Sequence record: MZ726797.1
DNA length: 57,811 nt
Origin: Escherichia phage vB_EcoS_AVIO78A
Strand: one strand, 5' to 3'
Shown: piece after piece, positions 3,864 through 44,048 of the stretch
Layout: each line of letters starts with the position of its first letter
Numbering within the stretch: position 1 is the first letter of the stretch
Notes under the pieces: model-generated
What the model was told of the DNA's origin: nothing
Databases searched by the model: none
The model's input: only the letters and a program-made list of their open reading frames with translations
Made by a program: the position numbers and the translations under genes

Positions 3864-4259
3864 TTAACAGAGGTTTCGGCTGGCGTAAAACTTTGTACCG
3901 ACTGGCATACGTTCCATGTTGAGTTTTCCACGCAGGTATTTGTATGTTTCACCGGGAGAACGTAGTTCTGCGTCACACGGTCTTTCAACAATTTCACCCA
4001 CGGGATCACCTAACGCGCCTTTCCATCCTTCCCACATTGCAGTCATAGTGATAAACCAGACACTACCTAAACTGGCTTTCTTATTCTCCCAGAACCAGTC
4101 GATGAACTCTATCGACATCCCATGCTGTTTTGCAATTTCGTAACGGTCATCCACGCTTTCAACCCTCCACCCATGTTTAGCACGATTCATAGCGGTCCGT
4201 TCATCATTCGTGGTGAACAGTACGCGCCCGGATTTATGACAAATGTTCCAAGTCGTCAT
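3864..4259 (-). CDS. hypothetical protein
   Basis: ORF track. Confidence 0.5.
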   Translation of the reverse strand: MTTWNICHKSGRVLFTTNDERTAMNRAKHGWRVESVDDRYEIAKQHGMSIEFIDWFWENKKASLGSVWFITMTAMWEGWKGALGDPVGEIVERPCDAELRSPGETYKYLRGKLNMERMPVGTKFYASRNLC

Positions 4260-4311
4260 TTCGCTAATACACCAATAATGAAAATTAGCATGTAGAATAA
4301 AACATTACGGG

Positions 4312-4470
4312 TCATAATTCATAAACCTTAAAACTACCGCCTGAATAGCGATGTTTATTACACAACTTACAACGGTGTTCCTGAGTGGCGTAATTACGTT
4401 CATCACCGTGGGTAGTACGATATAAATACCATTCGTGTTTACAGAATAATCGTTTGAGAAATATCTTCAT
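4312..4470 (-). CDS. small Cys/His-containing protein (possible zinc ribbon, ~52 aa)
   Basis: ATG with strong GAGGAGGGG RBS; CxxH...CxxC spacing; below ORF-track cutoff. Confidence 0.45.
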   Translation of the reverse strand: MKIFLKRLFCKHEWYLYRTTHGDERNYATQEHRCKLCNKHRYSGGSFKVYEL

Positions 4471-4473
4471 AGT

Positions 4474-4668
4474 TCAATAACCCCTCCTCGACTGGTAATC
4501 AATTTTCTTCAGTGATTGTTGCACAATCTGCCAGGACGATAACATGAATAATTGCGCGTATTGCCCCAGTGCTAAATTTCGTGGTTTATCCTGATAAGCG
4601 TAAATCGTCGCAACATCATCAGCTTCCAGACGGATCCGCCACGGTGTCAGAGTTGGTTTATCGCCCAT
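4474..4668 (-). CDS. hypothetical protein
   Basis: ORF 4474..4704 (TTG) trimmed to ATG 4668; overlaps upstream stop. Confidence 0.45.
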   Translation of the reverse strand: MGDKPTLTPWRIRLEADDVATIYAYQDKPRNLALGQYAQLFMLSSWQIVQQSLKKIDYQSRRGY

Positions 4669-4993
4669 GTTCGATGCTCTCCAGTAGTTCACGAATGTTT
4701 TCAATTACACGTTGTTTTGTCTGAGTAGTGACACACACCCCATCAGTGCGACCGAACGTATTCAGGACCGTTTGAAGCATGTAAGTCATAAGTTCAGTAT
4801 TATAAAGTTTTACGAATATTGAAAGATCGCCACCAATTTCAACAGTGTCTACATCATCTTCAAAATATGAAAATGTAGTGTCTTTAAAATGAACACAGTA
4901 AACGGCATTTTGCCCGTATTCAGGTTGTGCATTACGTTCAAGACGAACGGTAAGAACTTCTTTAAATAATCCGTTGTGGTCTTTAATTTTCAT
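4658..4993 (-). CDS. hypothetical protein
   Basis: ORF 4658..5038 trimmed to ATG 4993 with AGGAG RBS. Confidence 0.5.
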   Translation of the reverse strand: MKIKDHNGLFKEVLTVRLERNAQPEYGQNAVYCVHFKDTTFSYFEDDVDTVEIGGDLSIFVKLYNTELMTYMLQTVLNTFGRTDGVCVTTQTKQRVIENIRELLESIEHGR

Positions 4994-5025
4994 ACCTGTG
5001 TTACTCCTGTTCAATTGATGATCAG

Positions 5026-5069
5026 AGTCTGACACCACCTCTGTAATCTGTCAAGAATTATTTTAAACC
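5026..5069 (-). promoter_or_regulatory. conserved promoter (-35 TTGACA, weak -10)
   Basis: motif family member upstream of the 4993 gene. Confidence 0.5.
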
Positions 5070-5130
5070 TCTGTTACCACCTGTCACCCGTGGTAAACTG
5101 TACAGAACAGTTACAAACGGACCGACAATC

Positions 5131-6894
5131 ATGAATAAGTTTACTGGAAATATTCATAATTACCCGCGTTGGCGGGATGCTTACGCAAACGACGAACGTA
5201 TCTGGCGAAAAGGTCAGCCACGCCCGGATTACAAACAGTGTTACATTGACCGTATTAACCTGTTAAATCGTATGCGCACGGATCGGGCAATTGTCCCGGT
5301 ACTGAAAAAGTATTACGAAACAAACCCGGTAGCGTTTATCCTCGACTGGGCGTTTACTTACGACCCGCGTAACGTCGGTACTGAATATCCACCCAACATG
5401 CCTTTCTGCCTTTTTGAACGTCAAATCGACATGGTTCAGTTTGTTTACGAAGCGCTTGAAGATAAAGAGAAAGGGCTTTGGGAAAAATCGCGAGATTACG
5501 GTGCAACCTGGGTAGCCTGTGGCTTGTCCGTGTGGGCGTGGCTGTATCGTCCTGGTTCTTCAGTTGGCTGGGGATCACGTAAAGAACAGCTTGTTGATAA
5601 ACTGGGCGACCCGGATAGTATTTTTGAAAAGATTCGCCAGATTATTCGCGCATTACCACCAGAATTACGCCCTGTTGGTCTGCGTGAAAAAGACCATCTG
5701 GTTTATATGAAATGTATCAACCCTGAAAACGGTGCGACAATTACTGGTGAAGCTGGTGACAACATTGGTCGTGGTGGTCGTAAATCTGTTTACTTTCTCG
5801 ACGAAGCGGCACACGTAGATCGTCCTGAACTGATCGAAGCGTCGTTGTCAGCTAACACCAACGTCCGTATTGATATCAGTTCGGTTAATGGCGTTGGTAA
5901 CGTTTTTTATCGTAATCGTAAAGCTGGTCTGGAGTGGGAACCGGGCAAAAAATTACCTCGTGGTAAATTGCGTGTTATGGTTCTGGACTGGCGCGATCAC
6001 CCAGCTAAAGATGACGAATGGTATAAGCGAGAAAAACAATCTTTCGCTGAAAAAGGTTTACAGCATATTTTCGCACAGGAAGTTGACCGCGATTATGCCG
6101 CTGCTGTTCAGGGCGTGTTGATTAAAGCTGAATGGGTACGCGCTGCTTTTGATGCTTTCCGTGACACAGAATGGCGCAAAGCTAATGGACTACTTACACC
6201 AACAGGTCAACGTATCGCCGGACAGGACGCAGCAGACGGTGGTGAAGATGCCAGTGCGCTGGTAATTGCTCACGGTGTATTCCTGACACATCTGCAACTT
6301 GACCACAGGGGCGCTGAACTGGCTGCACCAGGAATGTTGACTATGGCTAATATGCTGGGTGTTGATGAATACTGGTACGAAGTTAACGGTGTTGGTACAG
6401 GCGTTAAAGTAGCGGCAAATGACCGAAAAGATACTTTACGCTTCCGTGTGCGTCCGTGGTTACCGAATGGAAAAGTTGTGGATCCGGGCGGTGATATTAT
6501 CGGTGGTACGAAACCTGGCGATAAAGACCGTAAATCAAACAAAGATTATTTCTCAAATTATAAAGCACAGGCATCGTGGGCGTTACGCTTGCGTTGTCAG
6601 CGAATTTATAAATGGTATGTGGAAGGTCAACCACAGGATCCAGACGAAATCATTCTGATTGATCCATCACTGGAAAATGCACAACGGTTAGAAGCTGAGT
6701 TAAGTCAGCCAACGTATACAAGTAACGGTGCCGGGAAGATTGTGATCGACAAAAAACCAAATGGAAGTAAGTCGCCAAACTTTTTCGATGCTGCGGTTAT
6801 TGCACTATCACCAAAACGTACCGAATTCGTTGAAGAACCGTTTACTGGCGGTGTGAATCCTGTTGGTACTCCTGAATATGGTGACATTTTTTAA
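5131..6894 (+). CDS. terminase large subunit
   Basis: 587 aa following TerS-like gene; ATPase-like segment KSRDYGATW and acidic FLDEAAH motif; followed by terminator. Confidence 0.75.
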   Translation: MNKFTGNIHNYPRWRDAYANDERIWRKGQPRPDYKQCYIDRINLLNRMRTDRAIVPVLKKYYETNPVAFILDWAFTYDPRNVGTEYPPNMPFCLFERQIDMVQFVYEALEDKEKGLWEKSRDYGATWVACGLSVWAWLYRPGSSVGWGSRKEQLVDKLGDPDSIFEKIRQIIRALPPELRPVGLREKDHLVYMKCINPENGATITGEAGDNIGRGGRKSVYFLDEAAHVDRPELIEASLSANTNVRIDISSVNGVGNVFYRNRKAGLEWEPGKKLPRGKLRVMVLDWRDHPAKDDEWYKREKQSFAEKGLQHIFAQEVDRDYAAAVQGVLIKAEWVRAAFDAFRDTEWRKANGLLTPTGQRIAGQDAADGGEDASALVIAHGVFLTHLQLDHRGAELAAPGMLTMANMLGVDEYWYEVNGVGTGVKVAANDRKDTLRFRVRPWLPNGKVVDPGGDIIGGTKPGDKDRKSNKDYFSNYKAQASWALRLRCQRIYKWYVEGQPQDPDEIILIDPSLENAQRLEAELSQPTYTSNGAGKIVIDKKPNGSKSPNFFDAAVIALSPKRTEFVEEPFTGGVNPVGTPEYGDIF

Positions 6895-39918: not shown

Positions 39919-41775
39919 TTACCGAAGTGGTGCAACGAGTTTTTCAGCTTCTTTGATGTAAAAATCATAATTTAGCGTTGCCCGGTTAAAACGTTTCATG
40001 TCGTTGCACTCCGTGGTCAACCAACCTTTGCACACTGACATACGGCGCTCAGGCGCGTCAGGGTTCAGTTTCAGTGATTTTGCCAGTGGTGGCATGACTT
40101 TTGTCAACGGTGCACCATCTGTACTGACGTAATAACGGGTAATGTTCTGAACCTGTTTATCACCCCATAATAACTTGCTGTTACGCGGTACTTTCGTCAC
40201 CAACATAAAATCGTGAATGTCTTCGTGTGATGTTATAAAATCACGAATGTCTTTATTGTGTACCAGTGCTGCTTCAGCAGCTTTTGCGACAACCTGCATA
40301 CTGTGGTTTTGATGCCAACCCAGATCAACACTGTGACAATAAGCGCCTTTACGTTTAACCTTCTTACCACCTTCGTAAACAGCGATATAATTATTTACAT
40401 CGCGAATAAACATCACGTCATAAATCGCTTCTTCAAGCTGGAGTCTGGTTAATTTTTCCCACGCGTGACGAACCTGTTCTACTTGTTCGGTAAACACTCG
40501 TGGCACGTAAACCGTAAGACCATCTGTGTTAGCCTGGATCATGGACAAACCAGGGATTTTCAGAAGTTCTTCAGCCAACATACACAAAAGTAATTGTCCG
40601 TTAATCGTAATAGCCATTGTATAAGCAGGATCGTAGAACGGGCTGTATACGTTATTACTGTCACCATACACACCGTTTAACGCTAGTTTTAACATTGCAT
40701 TTTCTGGTGTACCTTTCGGGTAACTGGAACGCATGTCATAAACATTTTTATAAATGGTGCAAAATTGTTTACCCAGATGTGCTGGATAAAGTTCATTACT
40801 GATCGCAAGGTTCGGGTAAAAACTGGCAACGTCCAGATCGATGATCACATAATTTTCAGTGGACCTGATAGTTTGAGACTCAATAGACCCGTGGATACCA
40901 CCCGTACCAAAATCAAACGAGAACCCGTTAATGTCTGCGCTTAAATCCGTGAATACACCTTTTGTTTCAGTGATGACCTGTTGGCGTAACCAGTTAAGAA
41001 CACGATTAAATTCAGGCTGTTCAAAACGGACATAAGGGAAAATCACACTGTTCAATGCGATTGACGGTCTGTGCGTCTGTCGTGGTTTTCTACTACCCGG
41101 TTCGAAACATTGAATACCTGATTTTTCAAGTTCCATAATGAAATAGTCTTTACCGATTTTCGTGTCATTATGGTTCATGAAATTACGACCGTATTTAGCA
41201 GAAAGTTCACGACGAAAATCTATCAGCTTTTTACTGTGTTTATAAAACATCAAAGTCGCTTTTAAATCGTGTATCAGATATTGACGAAGCGTATCAATTT
41301 GAGAATCGGTTAAATAAGTCCCTGGCGTAAATGGGAGGTCTTCAATGTTTTCCATTCTCATGTTGAATTCAAGTGTTTTCAGACTTGTTCGTTTTGCCTG
41401 ATTGTCGAAATGATGAATTTTATATAAATCAAGCTGGGGAACTATCCAGTCTTTTTCCCACACCATATGAGCAAAACGATTTTCATCACCAGCGTTAATT
41501 ATCGAATCACCTTTTTTATAAATGTCTGCGTTGGTGATATACATGATATTGTTCAAAATAGAATGCTGAACAGGATAGTCGTAACCCAGATTGTTATAAC
41601 CAACTTCTTCATCACGATGTTCACGTAAATATTCTGTGAACAGGTAAAAAGCCTGACGATCATCGCGACGATGTGAAATCTCAAAAATATAAGGTGTTTC
41701 AGTTAACGCGTGAATAGCACCGAACAGAAAAACATTAGGATAGTTTTCAATATCGTGAACGTAAGCATCTGACAT
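39919..41775 (-). CDS. DNA polymerase (compact, family-B-like motifs)
   Basis: DLDVASFYPN (motif A-like), KLALNGVYGDS (motif B-like), ANTDGL (motif C-like), N-terminal DxE and YxxxD exonuclease-like motifs. Confidence 0.55.
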   Translation of the reverse strand: MSDAYVHDIENYPNVFLFGAIHALTETPYIFEISHRRDDRQAFYLFTEYLREHRDEEVGYNNLGYDYPVQHSILNNIMYITNADIYKKGDSIINAGDENRFAHMVWEKDWIVPQLDLYKIHHFDNQAKRTSLKTLEFNMRMENIEDLPFTPGTYLTDSQIDTLRQYLIHDLKATLMFYKHSKKLIDFRRELSAKYGRNFMNHNDTKIGKDYFIMELEKSGIQCFEPGSRKPRQTHRPSIALNSVIFPYVRFEQPEFNRVLNWLRQQVITETKGVFTDLSADINGFSFDFGTGGIHGSIESQTIRSTENYVIIDLDVASFYPNLAISNELYPAHLGKQFCTIYKNVYDMRSSYPKGTPENAMLKLALNGVYGDSNNVYSPFYDPAYTMAITINGQLLLCMLAEELLKIPGLSMIQANTDGLTVYVPRVFTEQVEQVRHAWEKLTRLQLEEAIYDVMFIRDVNNYIAVYEGGKKVKRKGAYCHSVDLGWHQNHSMQVVAKAAEAALVHNKDIRDFITSHEDIHDFMLVTKVPRNSKLLWGDKQVQNITRYYVSTDGAPLTKVMPPLAKSLKLNPDAPERRMSVCKGWLTTECNDMKRFNRATLNYDFYIKEAEKLVAPLR

Positions 41776-41855: not shown

Positions 41856-42887
41856 TCAGTAACCGTTACCGTTGAGAAAATTCGGGGCCGGGGTGGTCAT
41901 TACCATATAACCGTTAGCGATCAGTTGTTCATCGTTCCAACCTTGCGCAATAAACTGTTCGTAAGTTGCACCACCTGCTTTTTCAGTCATTACTTTTACA
42001 GGTGCTGCCGCTGGTGTAGGCGTTGCTACAGGTGCTGCCGCTGGTGTAGGCGTTGCTACAGGTGCTGCCGCTGGTGTAGGCGTTGCTACAGGTGCTGCCG
42101 CTGGTGTAGGCGCTGCTACAGGTGCTGCCGCTGGTGTAGGCGTTGCTACAGGTGCTGCCGCTGGTGTAGGCGTTGCTACAGGTGCTGCCGCTGGTGTAGG
42201 CGTTGCTACAGGTGCTGCCGCTGGTGTAGGCGCTGCTACAGGTGCTGCCGCTGGTGTAGGCGCTGCTACAGGTGCTGCCGCTGGTGTTACGCCGATCGGA
42301 CGTGCACCTTCAGGCATTGCAGGAGCAGCACCGAACACAGATGCAGGAGCCGGACCAGAAATGATTTCTTCACCCGCATAAAGCAATTGCGCCATTTCCA
42401 TGTTGATATATACGCCAGCCTGATTACCTGTACGACCGTTTGCAACAGATGATCCGCTGATACGGTAGTAATAACCTTTTTTCGCCAGATTTTTATCAAT
42501 AACTGGCTGGTACGCTGCGTTATAAACCGGACACGCATCAATAGCCACGTTGCGTGAGAAACCAATTACCCAGTGACCAGCATAACCAGTTTTACTCGCA
42601 TGTTTCGGATCGTCACCGTTAATAATTTTCCATGCGAAAGTGGGTTGTTGTGGTTCGCCGTTCACATAGTGTGAGTTAGCCACTCGCATAATCGCCTGGA
42701 ATACCGCACCCAGTTCACCTTGTTCTTCCCACCAGTTCGCCGCTGTTTTAGGAAACGCCAGGCCAACCCACCAGTTGTGTTTTTCAGGTGCTAACGGTTT
42801 ATTTTCGTGGTCATGAGTGTTGATATCGAAAAAAGAACCGCCAACCAGACGACCAACCGGAGTTACAAAAGATTCTTTCTGTGCCAT
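41856..42887 (-). CDS. ssDNA-binding protein-like (DUF2815-like N-domain) with Pro/Ala repeat linker and conserved C-terminal motif
   Basis: VGRL...FPK pattern; PAAAPVA[TA]PT x ~9.5; C-terminal TYEQFIAQGWNDEQL. Confidence 0.5.
   Translation of the reverse strand: MAQKESFVTPVGRLVGGSFFDINTHDHENKPLAPEKHNWWVGLAFPKTAANWWEEQGELGAVFQAIMRVANSHYVNGEPQQPTFAWKIINGDDPKHASKTGYAGHWVIGFSRNVAIDACPVYNAAYQPVIDKNLAKKGYYYRISGSSVANGRTGNQAGVYINMEMAQLLYAGEEIISGPAPASVFGAAPAMPEGARPIGVTPAAAPVAAPTPAAAPVAAPTPAAAPVATPTPAAAPVATPTPAAAPVATPTPAAAPVAAPTPAAAPVATPTPAAAPVATPTPAAAPVATPTPAAAPVKVMTEKAGGATYEQFIAQGWNDEQLIANGYMVMTTPAPNFLNGNGY
41996..42288. repeat. tandem 30-bp repeat (~9.5 copies) encoding the Pro/Ala linker
   Basis: GGTGCTGCCGCTGGTGTAGGCG[T/C]TGCTACA repeated contiguously. 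Confidence 0.9.
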
Positions 42888-42902: not shown

Positions 42903-44048
42903 TTAAAGTGGACGTGCGCCAGTCGGCATCGTCACGGGTTTGTTAAAAACAGATTCTGCCAGTGTGCTGTGACCTTTACGCGGGTCACTGTCAGGTACTA
43001 AAACTGGCTGACCTTCTGGTTTTGTCGTACACATGTCAACAAGTGCCGGAGGCAGTGATTTTTCCAGTGTTGACAACGGTTTTAATTTACGTTCGTACAA
43101 TGTTTCAGGGTTTACACCAAACATGGGTGCAGCACCGATCAGTTTTCCTTCGTCCGTAAGCTGACGTCGGGTTTGCTTTGTTGCAAGTTTAAAACCCGGT
43201 AAAGCCTTACCCATGCGAACAAAATGTAACCCCTGAGTATGTAACGCTGTTTTTGCTTCAGAAGAACGCGTATACAGTTCTTCAAGAAGTGCCAGACGAC
43301 GCGCTACTTCTTCTGGCGTAAGTGATGGTGGTGCATCAAGAACAGTAGCCAATTCTAAAACCCTCTCATACATCGCCGGACACATACCACGCGCCGGACA
43401 GTAATGACAATGACTACCAACATTTAACGGTGCGTCTGGTTTATGTGCTTCGTTAAACCCGTGTTTAAATCGTTCAGCCCATTCCATCAATGTTGTCCGG
43501 TTAAACTCCCACCGTCTTACAAGTCCGAGTGGGTGATAAGCCCGTGGCTGAACAATTGTGAACACAACGCGCTTAACAGTATCAATACAACGTTGGTCCA
43601 GTGCGTAATAGACCCCCTGTGAATTATCAACTGCTTCAACTGCGATATGACCGTATTTATAATCCCATACGTAAAGCGTATCAGTATTAAAATCATACCA
43701 GCGATAATCACAGGTTCCGTACTGACCGGGTAACAACCAGTCAATGTGAATGCGAACTTCTGAAAACAGCGGATCAAGTTTCGCACCAACTGAAAGAACA
43801 TCTGCTATAAAGTCATCCGCGTAAATATGCATGTCTTCAGTAACCTGAACACCGTTAGGAGCAAGACACGGCATTAATGGCGGTTTGCCTTTAATCTTCT
43901 GTTCTAACACCCAGTGCCCGGCTGTACCTTCTTCAGCACTGGGTGATGATGGTTCTACATAGTCAATCCGCTGTGACAGTTGAACGCTACCCGGACAAGC
44001 TAACCAACGTTTTGATCCACTGGCACTAAAGGTAGCGTGACTGGTCAT
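42903..44048 (-). CDS. PD-(D/E)XK-type nuclease (DUF2800/Cas4-like, putative)
   Basis: N-terminal SASGSKRWLACPGS pattern; C-terminal Cys cluster; adjacent to SSB-like gene. Confidence 0.5.
   Translation of the reverse strand: MTSHATFSASGSKRWLACPGSVQLSQRIDYVEPSSPSAEEGTAGHWVLEQKIKGKPPLMPCLAPNGVQVTEDMHIYADDFIADVLSVGAKLDPLFSEVRIHIDWLLPGQYGTCDYRWYDFNTDTLYVWDYKYGHIAVEAVDNSQGVYYALDQRCIDTVKRVVFTIVQPRAYHPLGLVRRWEFNRTTLMEWAERFKHGFNEAHKPDAPLNVGSHCHYCPARGMCPAMYERVLELATVLDAPPSLTPEEVARRLALLEELYTRSSEAKTALHTQGLHFVRMGKALPGFKLATKQTRRQLTDEGKLIGAAPMFGVNPETLYERKLKPLSTLEKSLPPALVDMCTTKPEGQPVLVPDSDPRKGHSTLAESVFNKPVTMPTGARPL

Follow-up and report, generated by a model that had tools for sequence, protein, structure and literature searches.

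A predicted mini-domain shared by a gp2.5-like single-stranded DNA-binding protein and a DUF6378 protein of a 9NA-like phage: a candidate docking tag in phage replication

Why does a segment near the C-terminus of a phage SSB (single-stranded DNA-binding protein) recur inside a second protein of the same genome? The question is raised by Escherichia phage vB_EcoS_AVIO78A (sequence record MZ726797.1), of which the whole stretch of 57,811 nucleotides was analysed (the window in what follows); it amounts, in essence, to a whole siphophage genome, 9NA-like and from the Sashavirus group. One of the two proteins is a gp2.5-like SSB encoded on the minus strand and the other, encoded on the plus strand, contains a DUF6378 domain. 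The segment that they share belongs to a large family of modules which lie mostly at the C-termini of phage SSBs and which are predicted to fold on their own, and we consider it probable that the module is a docking or co-localisation tag in replication.

Comparison of the two proteins by BLASTP with composition-based statistics aligned SSB residues 299–332 with residues 70–103 of the plus-strand protein without gaps (21 of 34 residues identical and 26 of 34 similar; E = 1e-11). All other segment pairs gave E ≥ 0.27; as this segment alone aligns, the initial annotation was right to describe the same motif in two otherwise unrelated proteins. The E value remains at ∼1e-8 after an ∼2,300-fold correction for all-against-all comparison within the window proteome. 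A six-frame scan of the window with a profile built from the two copies returned both of them, with E values of about 1e-27 each, and no third copy (the next match had E = 1.9). The DNA of the two copies is identical at 64 of 108 positions (59%) and the mismatches fall mostly in third codon positions; the conservation is thus at the protein level, again as had been proposed. The position given for the plus-strand copy (15180..15264) holds, the peptide mapping to 15183..15263, but that given for the SSB copy (41910–41990) is shifted by ∼9 nt, SSB residues 303–329 corresponding to 41901..41981. Similarly, the SSB copy does lie beyond the repetitive Pro/Ala linker, as was claimed, but it is not terminal, since 15 further residues follow the module; the copy in the second protein is internal (residues 70–103 of 227).

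The SSB copy scores 76.5 bits against the module profile and is nearly invariant among seven 9NA-like SSBs; the second copy scores 63.1 bits. Orthologous modules share 20–27 of 31 residues, more than the 15–20 of 31 that are shared by the two modules within one genome. The duplication is thus old. We also considered whether the two copies in the window had recently undergone gene conversion, and rejected this on these grounds and on that of the low DNA identity.

When 1.84 billion representative proteins were searched exhaustively with the profile, 708 protein clusters matched at E ≤ 1e-3, of which 104 reached E ≤ 1e-10. The family thus numbers 708 protein clusters or more, and the module is not specific to one phage. 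Re-scanning of the best 150 matches showed a sharply bounded unit of ∼29–30 residues with the consensus MTaKAgGATYEqFIAqGWTDaqLIeqGYM. There are one to three copies per carrier, almost always embedded in Pro/Ala-rich sequence (the median P+A content of the 40 residues preceding the module is 51–72%), and at 17 of the 29 core positions a single residue is found in ≥68% of 142 aligned copies. Modelled as a single chain on the 142-copy alignment, the module is predicted by AlphaFold2 (AF2) with a mean predicted local distance difference test (pLDDT) score of 96.8: residues 3–4 pair with residues 31–32 in a closing β-bridge, and two short helices (13–18 and 23–29) lie between. BFVD models of carriers, including the Sasha SSB and 9NA gp29, have the same module fold, with template-modelling (TM) scores of 0.75–0.93 and root-mean-square deviations of 0.3–1.9 Å. 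The agreement of these independent models with the confident AF2 prediction indicates that the module is a compact, independently folding mini-domain of ∼30 residues and not a disordered peptide.

No match to the module was found in Pfam, NCBIfam or the PDB, nor any structural neighbour in the PDB, and we found no published description of it in the literature. PHROGs includes it implicitly only, as the last 50 positions, at the C-terminal end, of the profile for phrog_7011. With ∼30 residues it would rank among the smallest autonomous domains and could be useful as a model or as an engineering tag.

We surveyed 125 full-length carriers. The profile of phrog_7011 matches 91 of them and that of phrog_112 matches 38, both being gp2.5-like families, and 35 match Pfam Enc34_ssDNA-bd (PF10991). 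Nine carriers match DUF669/phrog_6015, a different family that is also annotated as SSB and has no detectable sequence similarity to the gp2.5/Enc34-like family. The smaller groups comprise uncharacterised PHROGs, DUF6378, DUF7173 and DUF7210 proteins; a MazG pyrophosphohydrolase and linker-rich proteins are further carriers. After the last module a median of 2–5 residues follows in the gp2.5-like SSBs and a median of 43, rich in Pro and Ala, in the DUF669-type carriers, ∼7 of 9 of which end in PPW (or PVW) and two or three further residues (for example PPWAK, PPWAR or PPWVKT). Some carriers have, after the last module, a tip resembling that of E. coli SSB, such as TSADDIPF or LSHDGIPF; these various endings were noted among P0036, members of the P0016 cluster and the DUF669 cluster. 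Among records of cultured phages, about 32–38 of 50,697 have the module, and all of these phages infect Gammaproteobacteria. The features of the window are collected in Table 1.

Table 1. Positions in the window of the two module copies, their carriers and the genes next to the SSB gene.
Feature	Position	Strand	Remarks
Module copy 1	41892..41996	-	SSB residues 298–332 (KVMTEKAGGATYEQFIAQGWNDEQLIANGYMVMTT)
Module copy 1, core	41904..41990	-	M300–M328
Module copy 2	15171..15272	+	Residues 70–103 of 227-aa protein (LMTPKARGNTYEEFIATGWNDDQLVEHGYAVRIT)
Module copy 2, core	15174..15260	+	M71–A99
gp2.5-like ssDNA-binding/annealing protein gene	41856..42887	-	343 aa; phrog_7011 E=1.3e-100; orthologs annotated Gp2.5-like SSB
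Tandem DNA repeat, 30 bp x 9.7	41997..42287	-	Encodes PTPAAAPVA[A/T] decapeptide linker joining module to SSB core
SSB tail after module	41859..41903	-	Residues 329–343, VMTTPAPNFLNGNGY; no acidic residues
Second carrier gene	14964..15647	+	227 aa; phrog_32742 and phrog_474 matches
DUF6378 domain	15381..15623	+	Four predicted helices; Pfam match
DNA polymerase gene	39919..41775	-	Immediately downstream of SSB; annotation in relatives; candidate partner
DUF2800-type exonuclease gene	42903..44048	-	Immediately upstream of SSB; annotation in relatives; same replication/recombination cluster

The window SSB has an oligonucleotide/oligosaccharide-binding (OB)-type core (approximately residues 1–195), after which come the decapeptide linker, the module and finally a tail of 15 residues. 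Its binding to single-stranded DNA (ssDNA) is assigned by family match: the PHROG profiles place its core with the OB-fold cores of the T7 gp2.5/Enc34 type (E = 0.003 for phrog_112), and searches of Pfam with the window SSB gave no match at E ≤ 1, PF10991 included. The long, acidic, unstructured C-terminal tail of the T7-type family is missing from it; the last 20 residues of module-bearing SSBs contain a median of two acidic residues (Asp or Glu), and those of the window SSB contain none. The SSB region is 96–98% identical to that of Salmonella phage Sasha and of the E. coli phages Bas82, PJ16 and PDP46, all of which also match at the second locus.

The repeat that encodes the linker (Tandem Repeats Finder score 561, 98% matches) is annotated in phage Sasha as a 'direct tandem repeat region'. 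Even very close relatives do not have the same number of units: Sasha has four fewer, and 9NA and the Klebsiella phages differ again, so that the length of the linker evolves quickly and the module stays fixed. The tail TTPAPNFLNGNGY is kept as TTPAP[NG]FL[NT]GNGY in all seven relatives and may be a separate short terminal motif; similar endings ('APNFLN' / 'SPAPNFLNR') were noticed in an unrelated carrier. Antisense to the repeat region runs a plus-strand open reading frame of 175 residues (41925..42452), rich in 'CRWCRRCYR' repeats, which almost certainly owes its existence to the repeat and is not a gene.

The second carrier begins with a β-rich domain (residues 5–66), followed by the module, a linker predicted with low confidence and the helical DUF6378 domain (residues 140–220). 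An uncharacterised PHROG family matches its first 60 residues, and PF19905 (DUF6378) matches residues 140–220 with 29.1 bits, above the gathering threshold of 27.1. The AF2 model of the full-length protein has a mean pLDDT of 57; the module is its best-predicted part (pLDDT 79–86) and has the same secondary structure as in the separate model. PF19905 is present in all but one of the 120 homologs listed; across 9NA-like phages the module is intact in 65 of these, truncated to a half in 20 and absent from 35. The SSB copy is always present across the seven 9NA-like relatives and the DUF6378-family copy is often truncated or absent, and the SSB copy thus looks essential and the second copy accessory.

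What the DUF6378 domain does is hinted at by its surroundings. The gene faces a dUTPase gene; together with the MazG protein that carries a module in contig L025 and a gene annotated as 'nucleotide kinase' in Sasha (both described below), this is circumstantial evidence that DUF6378 acts on nucleotides. The domain matched no PDB sequence, either as a single sequence or as a family profile, and the protein had no match in NCBIfam. MazG identity was considered for DUF6378, which is not detectably MazG-like, as hhalign of the DUF6378 family with a MazG carrier aligned the module alone; PHROG names given to the second carrier, such as 'phosphofructokinase', were judged not to be credible.

The locus itself is variable. 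In phage Sasha (L007, 1568..2103) it is split: gp23 consists of the N-terminal domain and a remnant 'NDDRL', with the module absent, and directly downstream lies gp24, a gene of 70 residues that bears the 'nucleotide kinase' annotation and sits roughly in the place of the DUF6378 domain. This arrangement suggests cassette exchange at the site. In 9NA gp29 (L019) a full module is followed by a 'DVTVTRVNDDRLTESL' segment, and the PJ16-type proteins (the PJ16, PDP46 and SP069 orthologs, L003–L005) have a hybrid in which 'DVTVTRV' is fused to 'NDDQLVxxGY', which looks as though the two stretches of NDD[QR]L had recombined or the sequence between them had been deleted. The Bas82 ortholog (Bas82_0021; L002, 3063..3803) is annotated with ∼20 extra N-terminal residues (247 versus 227), and several metagenomic homologs have ∼246–252 residues compared with 221–227; the window reading frame begins with MM, and the difference in length may reflect an alternative start codon or a real extension.

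A scan for the module with a degenerate DNA pattern gave 21 loci, and neighbouring genes were clustered for the window and 31 other carrier loci, many of them incomplete. The carrier genes sit in replication clusters of differing type. One type, with a DUF2800 exonuclease, the SSB and a polymerase, is found in 9NA-like phages, Vibrio phages, Yersinia phage fEV-1 and Stenotrophomonas phage B2; another has a DUF3987 primase, AAA_24 and a DUF669 SSB, and further types have an SNF2 helicase or a ResIII helicase with DnaB and uracil-DNA glycosylase (UDG). Homologs of the window polymerase are present in 14 of the 31 other loci and homologs of the DUF2800 exonuclease in 13, in both cases in addition to the window, and a second PolA family is present in six carrier loci.

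In three separate phage lineages an SSB, or a protein in the SSB position, is accompanied by a second carrier in the same genome. The window pairs a gp2.5-type SSB with a DUF6378 protein. Contig L025 pairs a module-bearing DUF669-type SSB with a MazG pyrophosphohydrolase (PF03819) that has a divergent C-terminal copy, a fusion that recurs in at least one further homolog. In L017 the carrier in the SSB position is followed immediately by a second carrier (4241..5182), a linker-rich protein that has two modules, bears a 'W...H...K...G.WKK' motif and ends in an acidic '...DWG'. A group of other matches is built in the same way, linker-rich with one to three modules: P0034, P0051, P0025, P0090, P0053 and P0129. 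These proteins share a 'PWDxRIH...K...G.[WF]K.+RG'-type motif, and several of them, P0053 and P0129 excepted, end in an acidic '...L[IN][KN]DW[GD]'; they may be replisome adaptors.

Several explanations can be offered for the sharing of the module. That chance or composition produced the similarity has a negligible probability: a strongly biased Pro/Ala region does adjoin the SSB motif, but the motif itself is not of low complexity and has a confidently predicted fold, and the composition-adjusted BLASTP match, the six-frame profile scan and the family of 708 clusters together refute this explanation. Nor is the module the generic, low-information segment against which the initial annotation had set its proposal; its carriers are many and unrelated, yet each copy contributes 50–70 bits and the contexts are those of phage replication. 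Two short helices on a linker resemble, in outline, small DNA-binding motifs, and a nucleic-acid-binding mini-domain of the SAP/HeH type would add DNA contacts to its carriers. However, the mean net charge of the module is −1.9, the charge is negative in 129 of 142 copies and K7 is the sole conserved basic position, which disfavours nucleic-acid binding; with neither a Pfam match nor a PDB structural neighbour to point that way, we regard such a role as highly improbable. The same mild acidity, together with the richness in aromatic residues, would suit a module that bends back to lie in the groove where its own SSB, or one next to it, binds ssDNA, and that tunes affinity or specificity as the T7 gp2.5 tail does rather than recruiting partners; the module indeed stands where T7-type SSBs have their acidic tail, a competitor of ssDNA (PMC5686142). 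A net charge near −2 is nevertheless far weaker than that of the canonical tail, and the module is carried by two dissimilar SSB families and by proteins that are not SSBs (DUF6378, MazG, DUF7173 and linker-rich proteins); we consider intramolecular regulation to be improbable.

The modules might instead be stickers that bind each other, giving cooperative or multivalent association between SSBs on ssDNA with the accessory proteins as clients. Carrier genomes differ in their replisome types, and nothing but the module itself is common to all of them; tandem arrangements of two or three copies on long flexible linkers are frequent, at least two copies being present in 25 of 51 phrog_7011-type SSBs; two carriers occur per genome in the three lineages above; the client-like carriers lose the module easily; and among the 29 residues of the core ∼10 are hydrophobic or aromatic, too many for a domain of this size to bury as a monomer. 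On the other hand, AF2 is very confident in a self-contained monomer, although this is not decisive as a single chain was modelled, and within one phage the SSB-type and second-protein-type modules have drifted apart, with 14–20 of 31 residues in common, and show no sign of varying together. We hold homotypic binding to be possible but rather unlikely. A variant in which stickers on Pro/Ala spacers possibly form a condensate-like hub leads to a more far-reaching proposal, which we think unlikely: self-associating, multivalent modules would build an SSB-centred hub or condensate on ssDNA and serve as a replisome address tag, concentrating nucleotide-pool enzymes (MazG and possibly DUF6378) at the fork. 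If true, this would be a simple modular means of sanitising or channelling nucleotides in phage replication.

The reading that we favour is that of a tethered docking tag, which fits the place of the module in the SSB, its flexible tether, its multivalency, the replication contexts and the repeated grafting onto a second protein of the same genome. The module, held on a long flexible Pro/Ala-rich linker, would act in protein–protein docking and tie the SSB to some other part of the replication machinery; an accessory protein that has acquired it (DUF6378 here and MazG elsewhere) would be brought to the site of the SSB. In the variant that we prefer, and advance tentatively, both carriers would bind one shared third component, which could be a replisome protein such as the product of the adjacent polymerase gene, or a host factor. 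The initial annotation had proposed a shared interaction peptide analogous to SSB tails; the tail position, the replication-cluster carriers and the recurrent pairing agree with a shared interaction element, but the confident prediction of a folded mini-domain does not agree with a peptide.

A number of observations weigh against this reading. Clustering of the genes around the carriers, in the window and 31 loci of which many are truncated, found no gene family common to all of the contexts, and no polymerase is visible in L016, L017, L018 or L025; as the replisome gene sets differ between carrier lineages, a single conserved phage partner is unlikely. Folding alone can explain most of the conserved positions (the N-caps T12 and T22/D23, the turns at G10, G20 and G30 and the hydrophobic core), so that the conservation of the module is no proof of a conserved interface, and the exposed faces of the helices vary, with SSB-type and DUF6378-type modules differing at just those positions. 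The module is dispensable in the DUF6378 family, given the 35 homologs without it and the 20 with half of it. Finally, some carriers bear an extra E. coli SSB-like DDIPF or DGIPF tip after the module, which is thus not the sole interaction element in these proteins; in such phages the C-terminal regions of the SSBs look like strings of several distinct docking elements.

The C-termini of SSBs are organising hubs of replication and repair, and the textbook picture of them, in bacteria and phages alike, is that of a disordered acidic tail. A large group of phage SSBs from two dissimilar families bears instead a tiny domain, predicted to be folded, on a Pro/Ala tether, and the same domain has also been copied onto accessory proteins within the same genomes. 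If the module is a docking tag, it offers a handle for finding what module-bearing replisomes are built around, a way to test the physical coupling of nucleotide-pool enzymes to the fork and an annotation for hundreds of 'hypothetical' C-terminal regions. Experiments are practical, since the close relative Bas82 (from a BASEL-type collection; 97.6% DNA identity over the SSB region) infects E. coli.

Of the known systems, the tails of T7 gp2.5 and Enc34 ORF6 are the most direct comparison, as they belong to the same SSB family and occupy the same place after the OB core and a flexible region. The Enc34 study compares four T7-type SSBs, each of which has a long, unstructured, acidic C-terminal tail; in Enc34, 16 of the last 29 residues are acidic, and the tail of T7-type SSBs competes with ssDNA (PMC5686142). 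It is also the element that recruits polymerase and helicase (PMC5686142, PMC12339929). In T7 the helicase–primase gp4 has a C-terminal tail similar to that of gp2.5, and both tails dock on one basic patch of gp5, the polymerase (PMC12339929), a precedent for two replisome proteins that share a docking element. These tails, like the tip of E. coli SSB (SSB-Ct), are disordered and strongly acidic and end in an aromatic residue, whereas the module is predicted to be folded and has a charge of about −2; it is not a short linear motif of the SSB-Ct type, disordered and at the extreme C-terminus, but can be internal, is present one to three times and, in a few carriers, has a DDIPF-like tip as a distinct element after it. 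As module-bearing SSBs are without an acidic tail, the module on its Pro/Ala tether sits where that tail would be.

A folded docking domain on such a tether is known from the E2 chains of 2-oxoacid dehydrogenases, in which the peripheral subunit-binding domain (PSBD), a two-helix domain of ∼35 residues on Ala/Pro-rich swinging-arm linkers, has the docking of partner enzymes as its sole role. The resemblance is architectural only: there is no sequence or profile similarity between the PSBD and the module, no Pfam E3_binding match and no structural match. In sequence, the module can be read as ∼2.5 units of G-[FYW]-T-x-x-[EQ]-L-x-x-x, which recalls the decapeptide repeats of DotG/IcmE (PF25296); the DotG repeats (KAAGFTAxELKxAGF) align with the module. 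The module differs in being closed and capped and in its additional conserved N-terminal MTxKA, whereas DotG is an open repeat array. The module profile does not match DotG chains significantly (E = 1.1). Conversely, carrier P0006 scores 18.2 bits against PF25296, below the gathering threshold of 45, the best E value among three weakly matching carriers is 1.9e-05, and the window SSB has no match at E ≤ 1. The top match of the module profile search, P0002, is a low-GC-style protein of 2,733 residues with ∼30 copies of a decapeptide-type 'YTVEQVKALGFTxQQLIDxGYT' that resembles the two helices of the module.

In T4, the recruitment of dNTP-synthesis enzymes is centred on the SSB, gp32, which keeps them close to the fork by many weak contacts. 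The idea of nucleotide-pool enzymes kept near the fork is common to T4 and to the arrangement proposed here, but T4 achieves this without a shared modular tag. Set beside these systems, the module is best described as an SSB C-terminal interaction element that appears to be realised as a folded, modular and widespread mini-domain rather than as an acidic tail.

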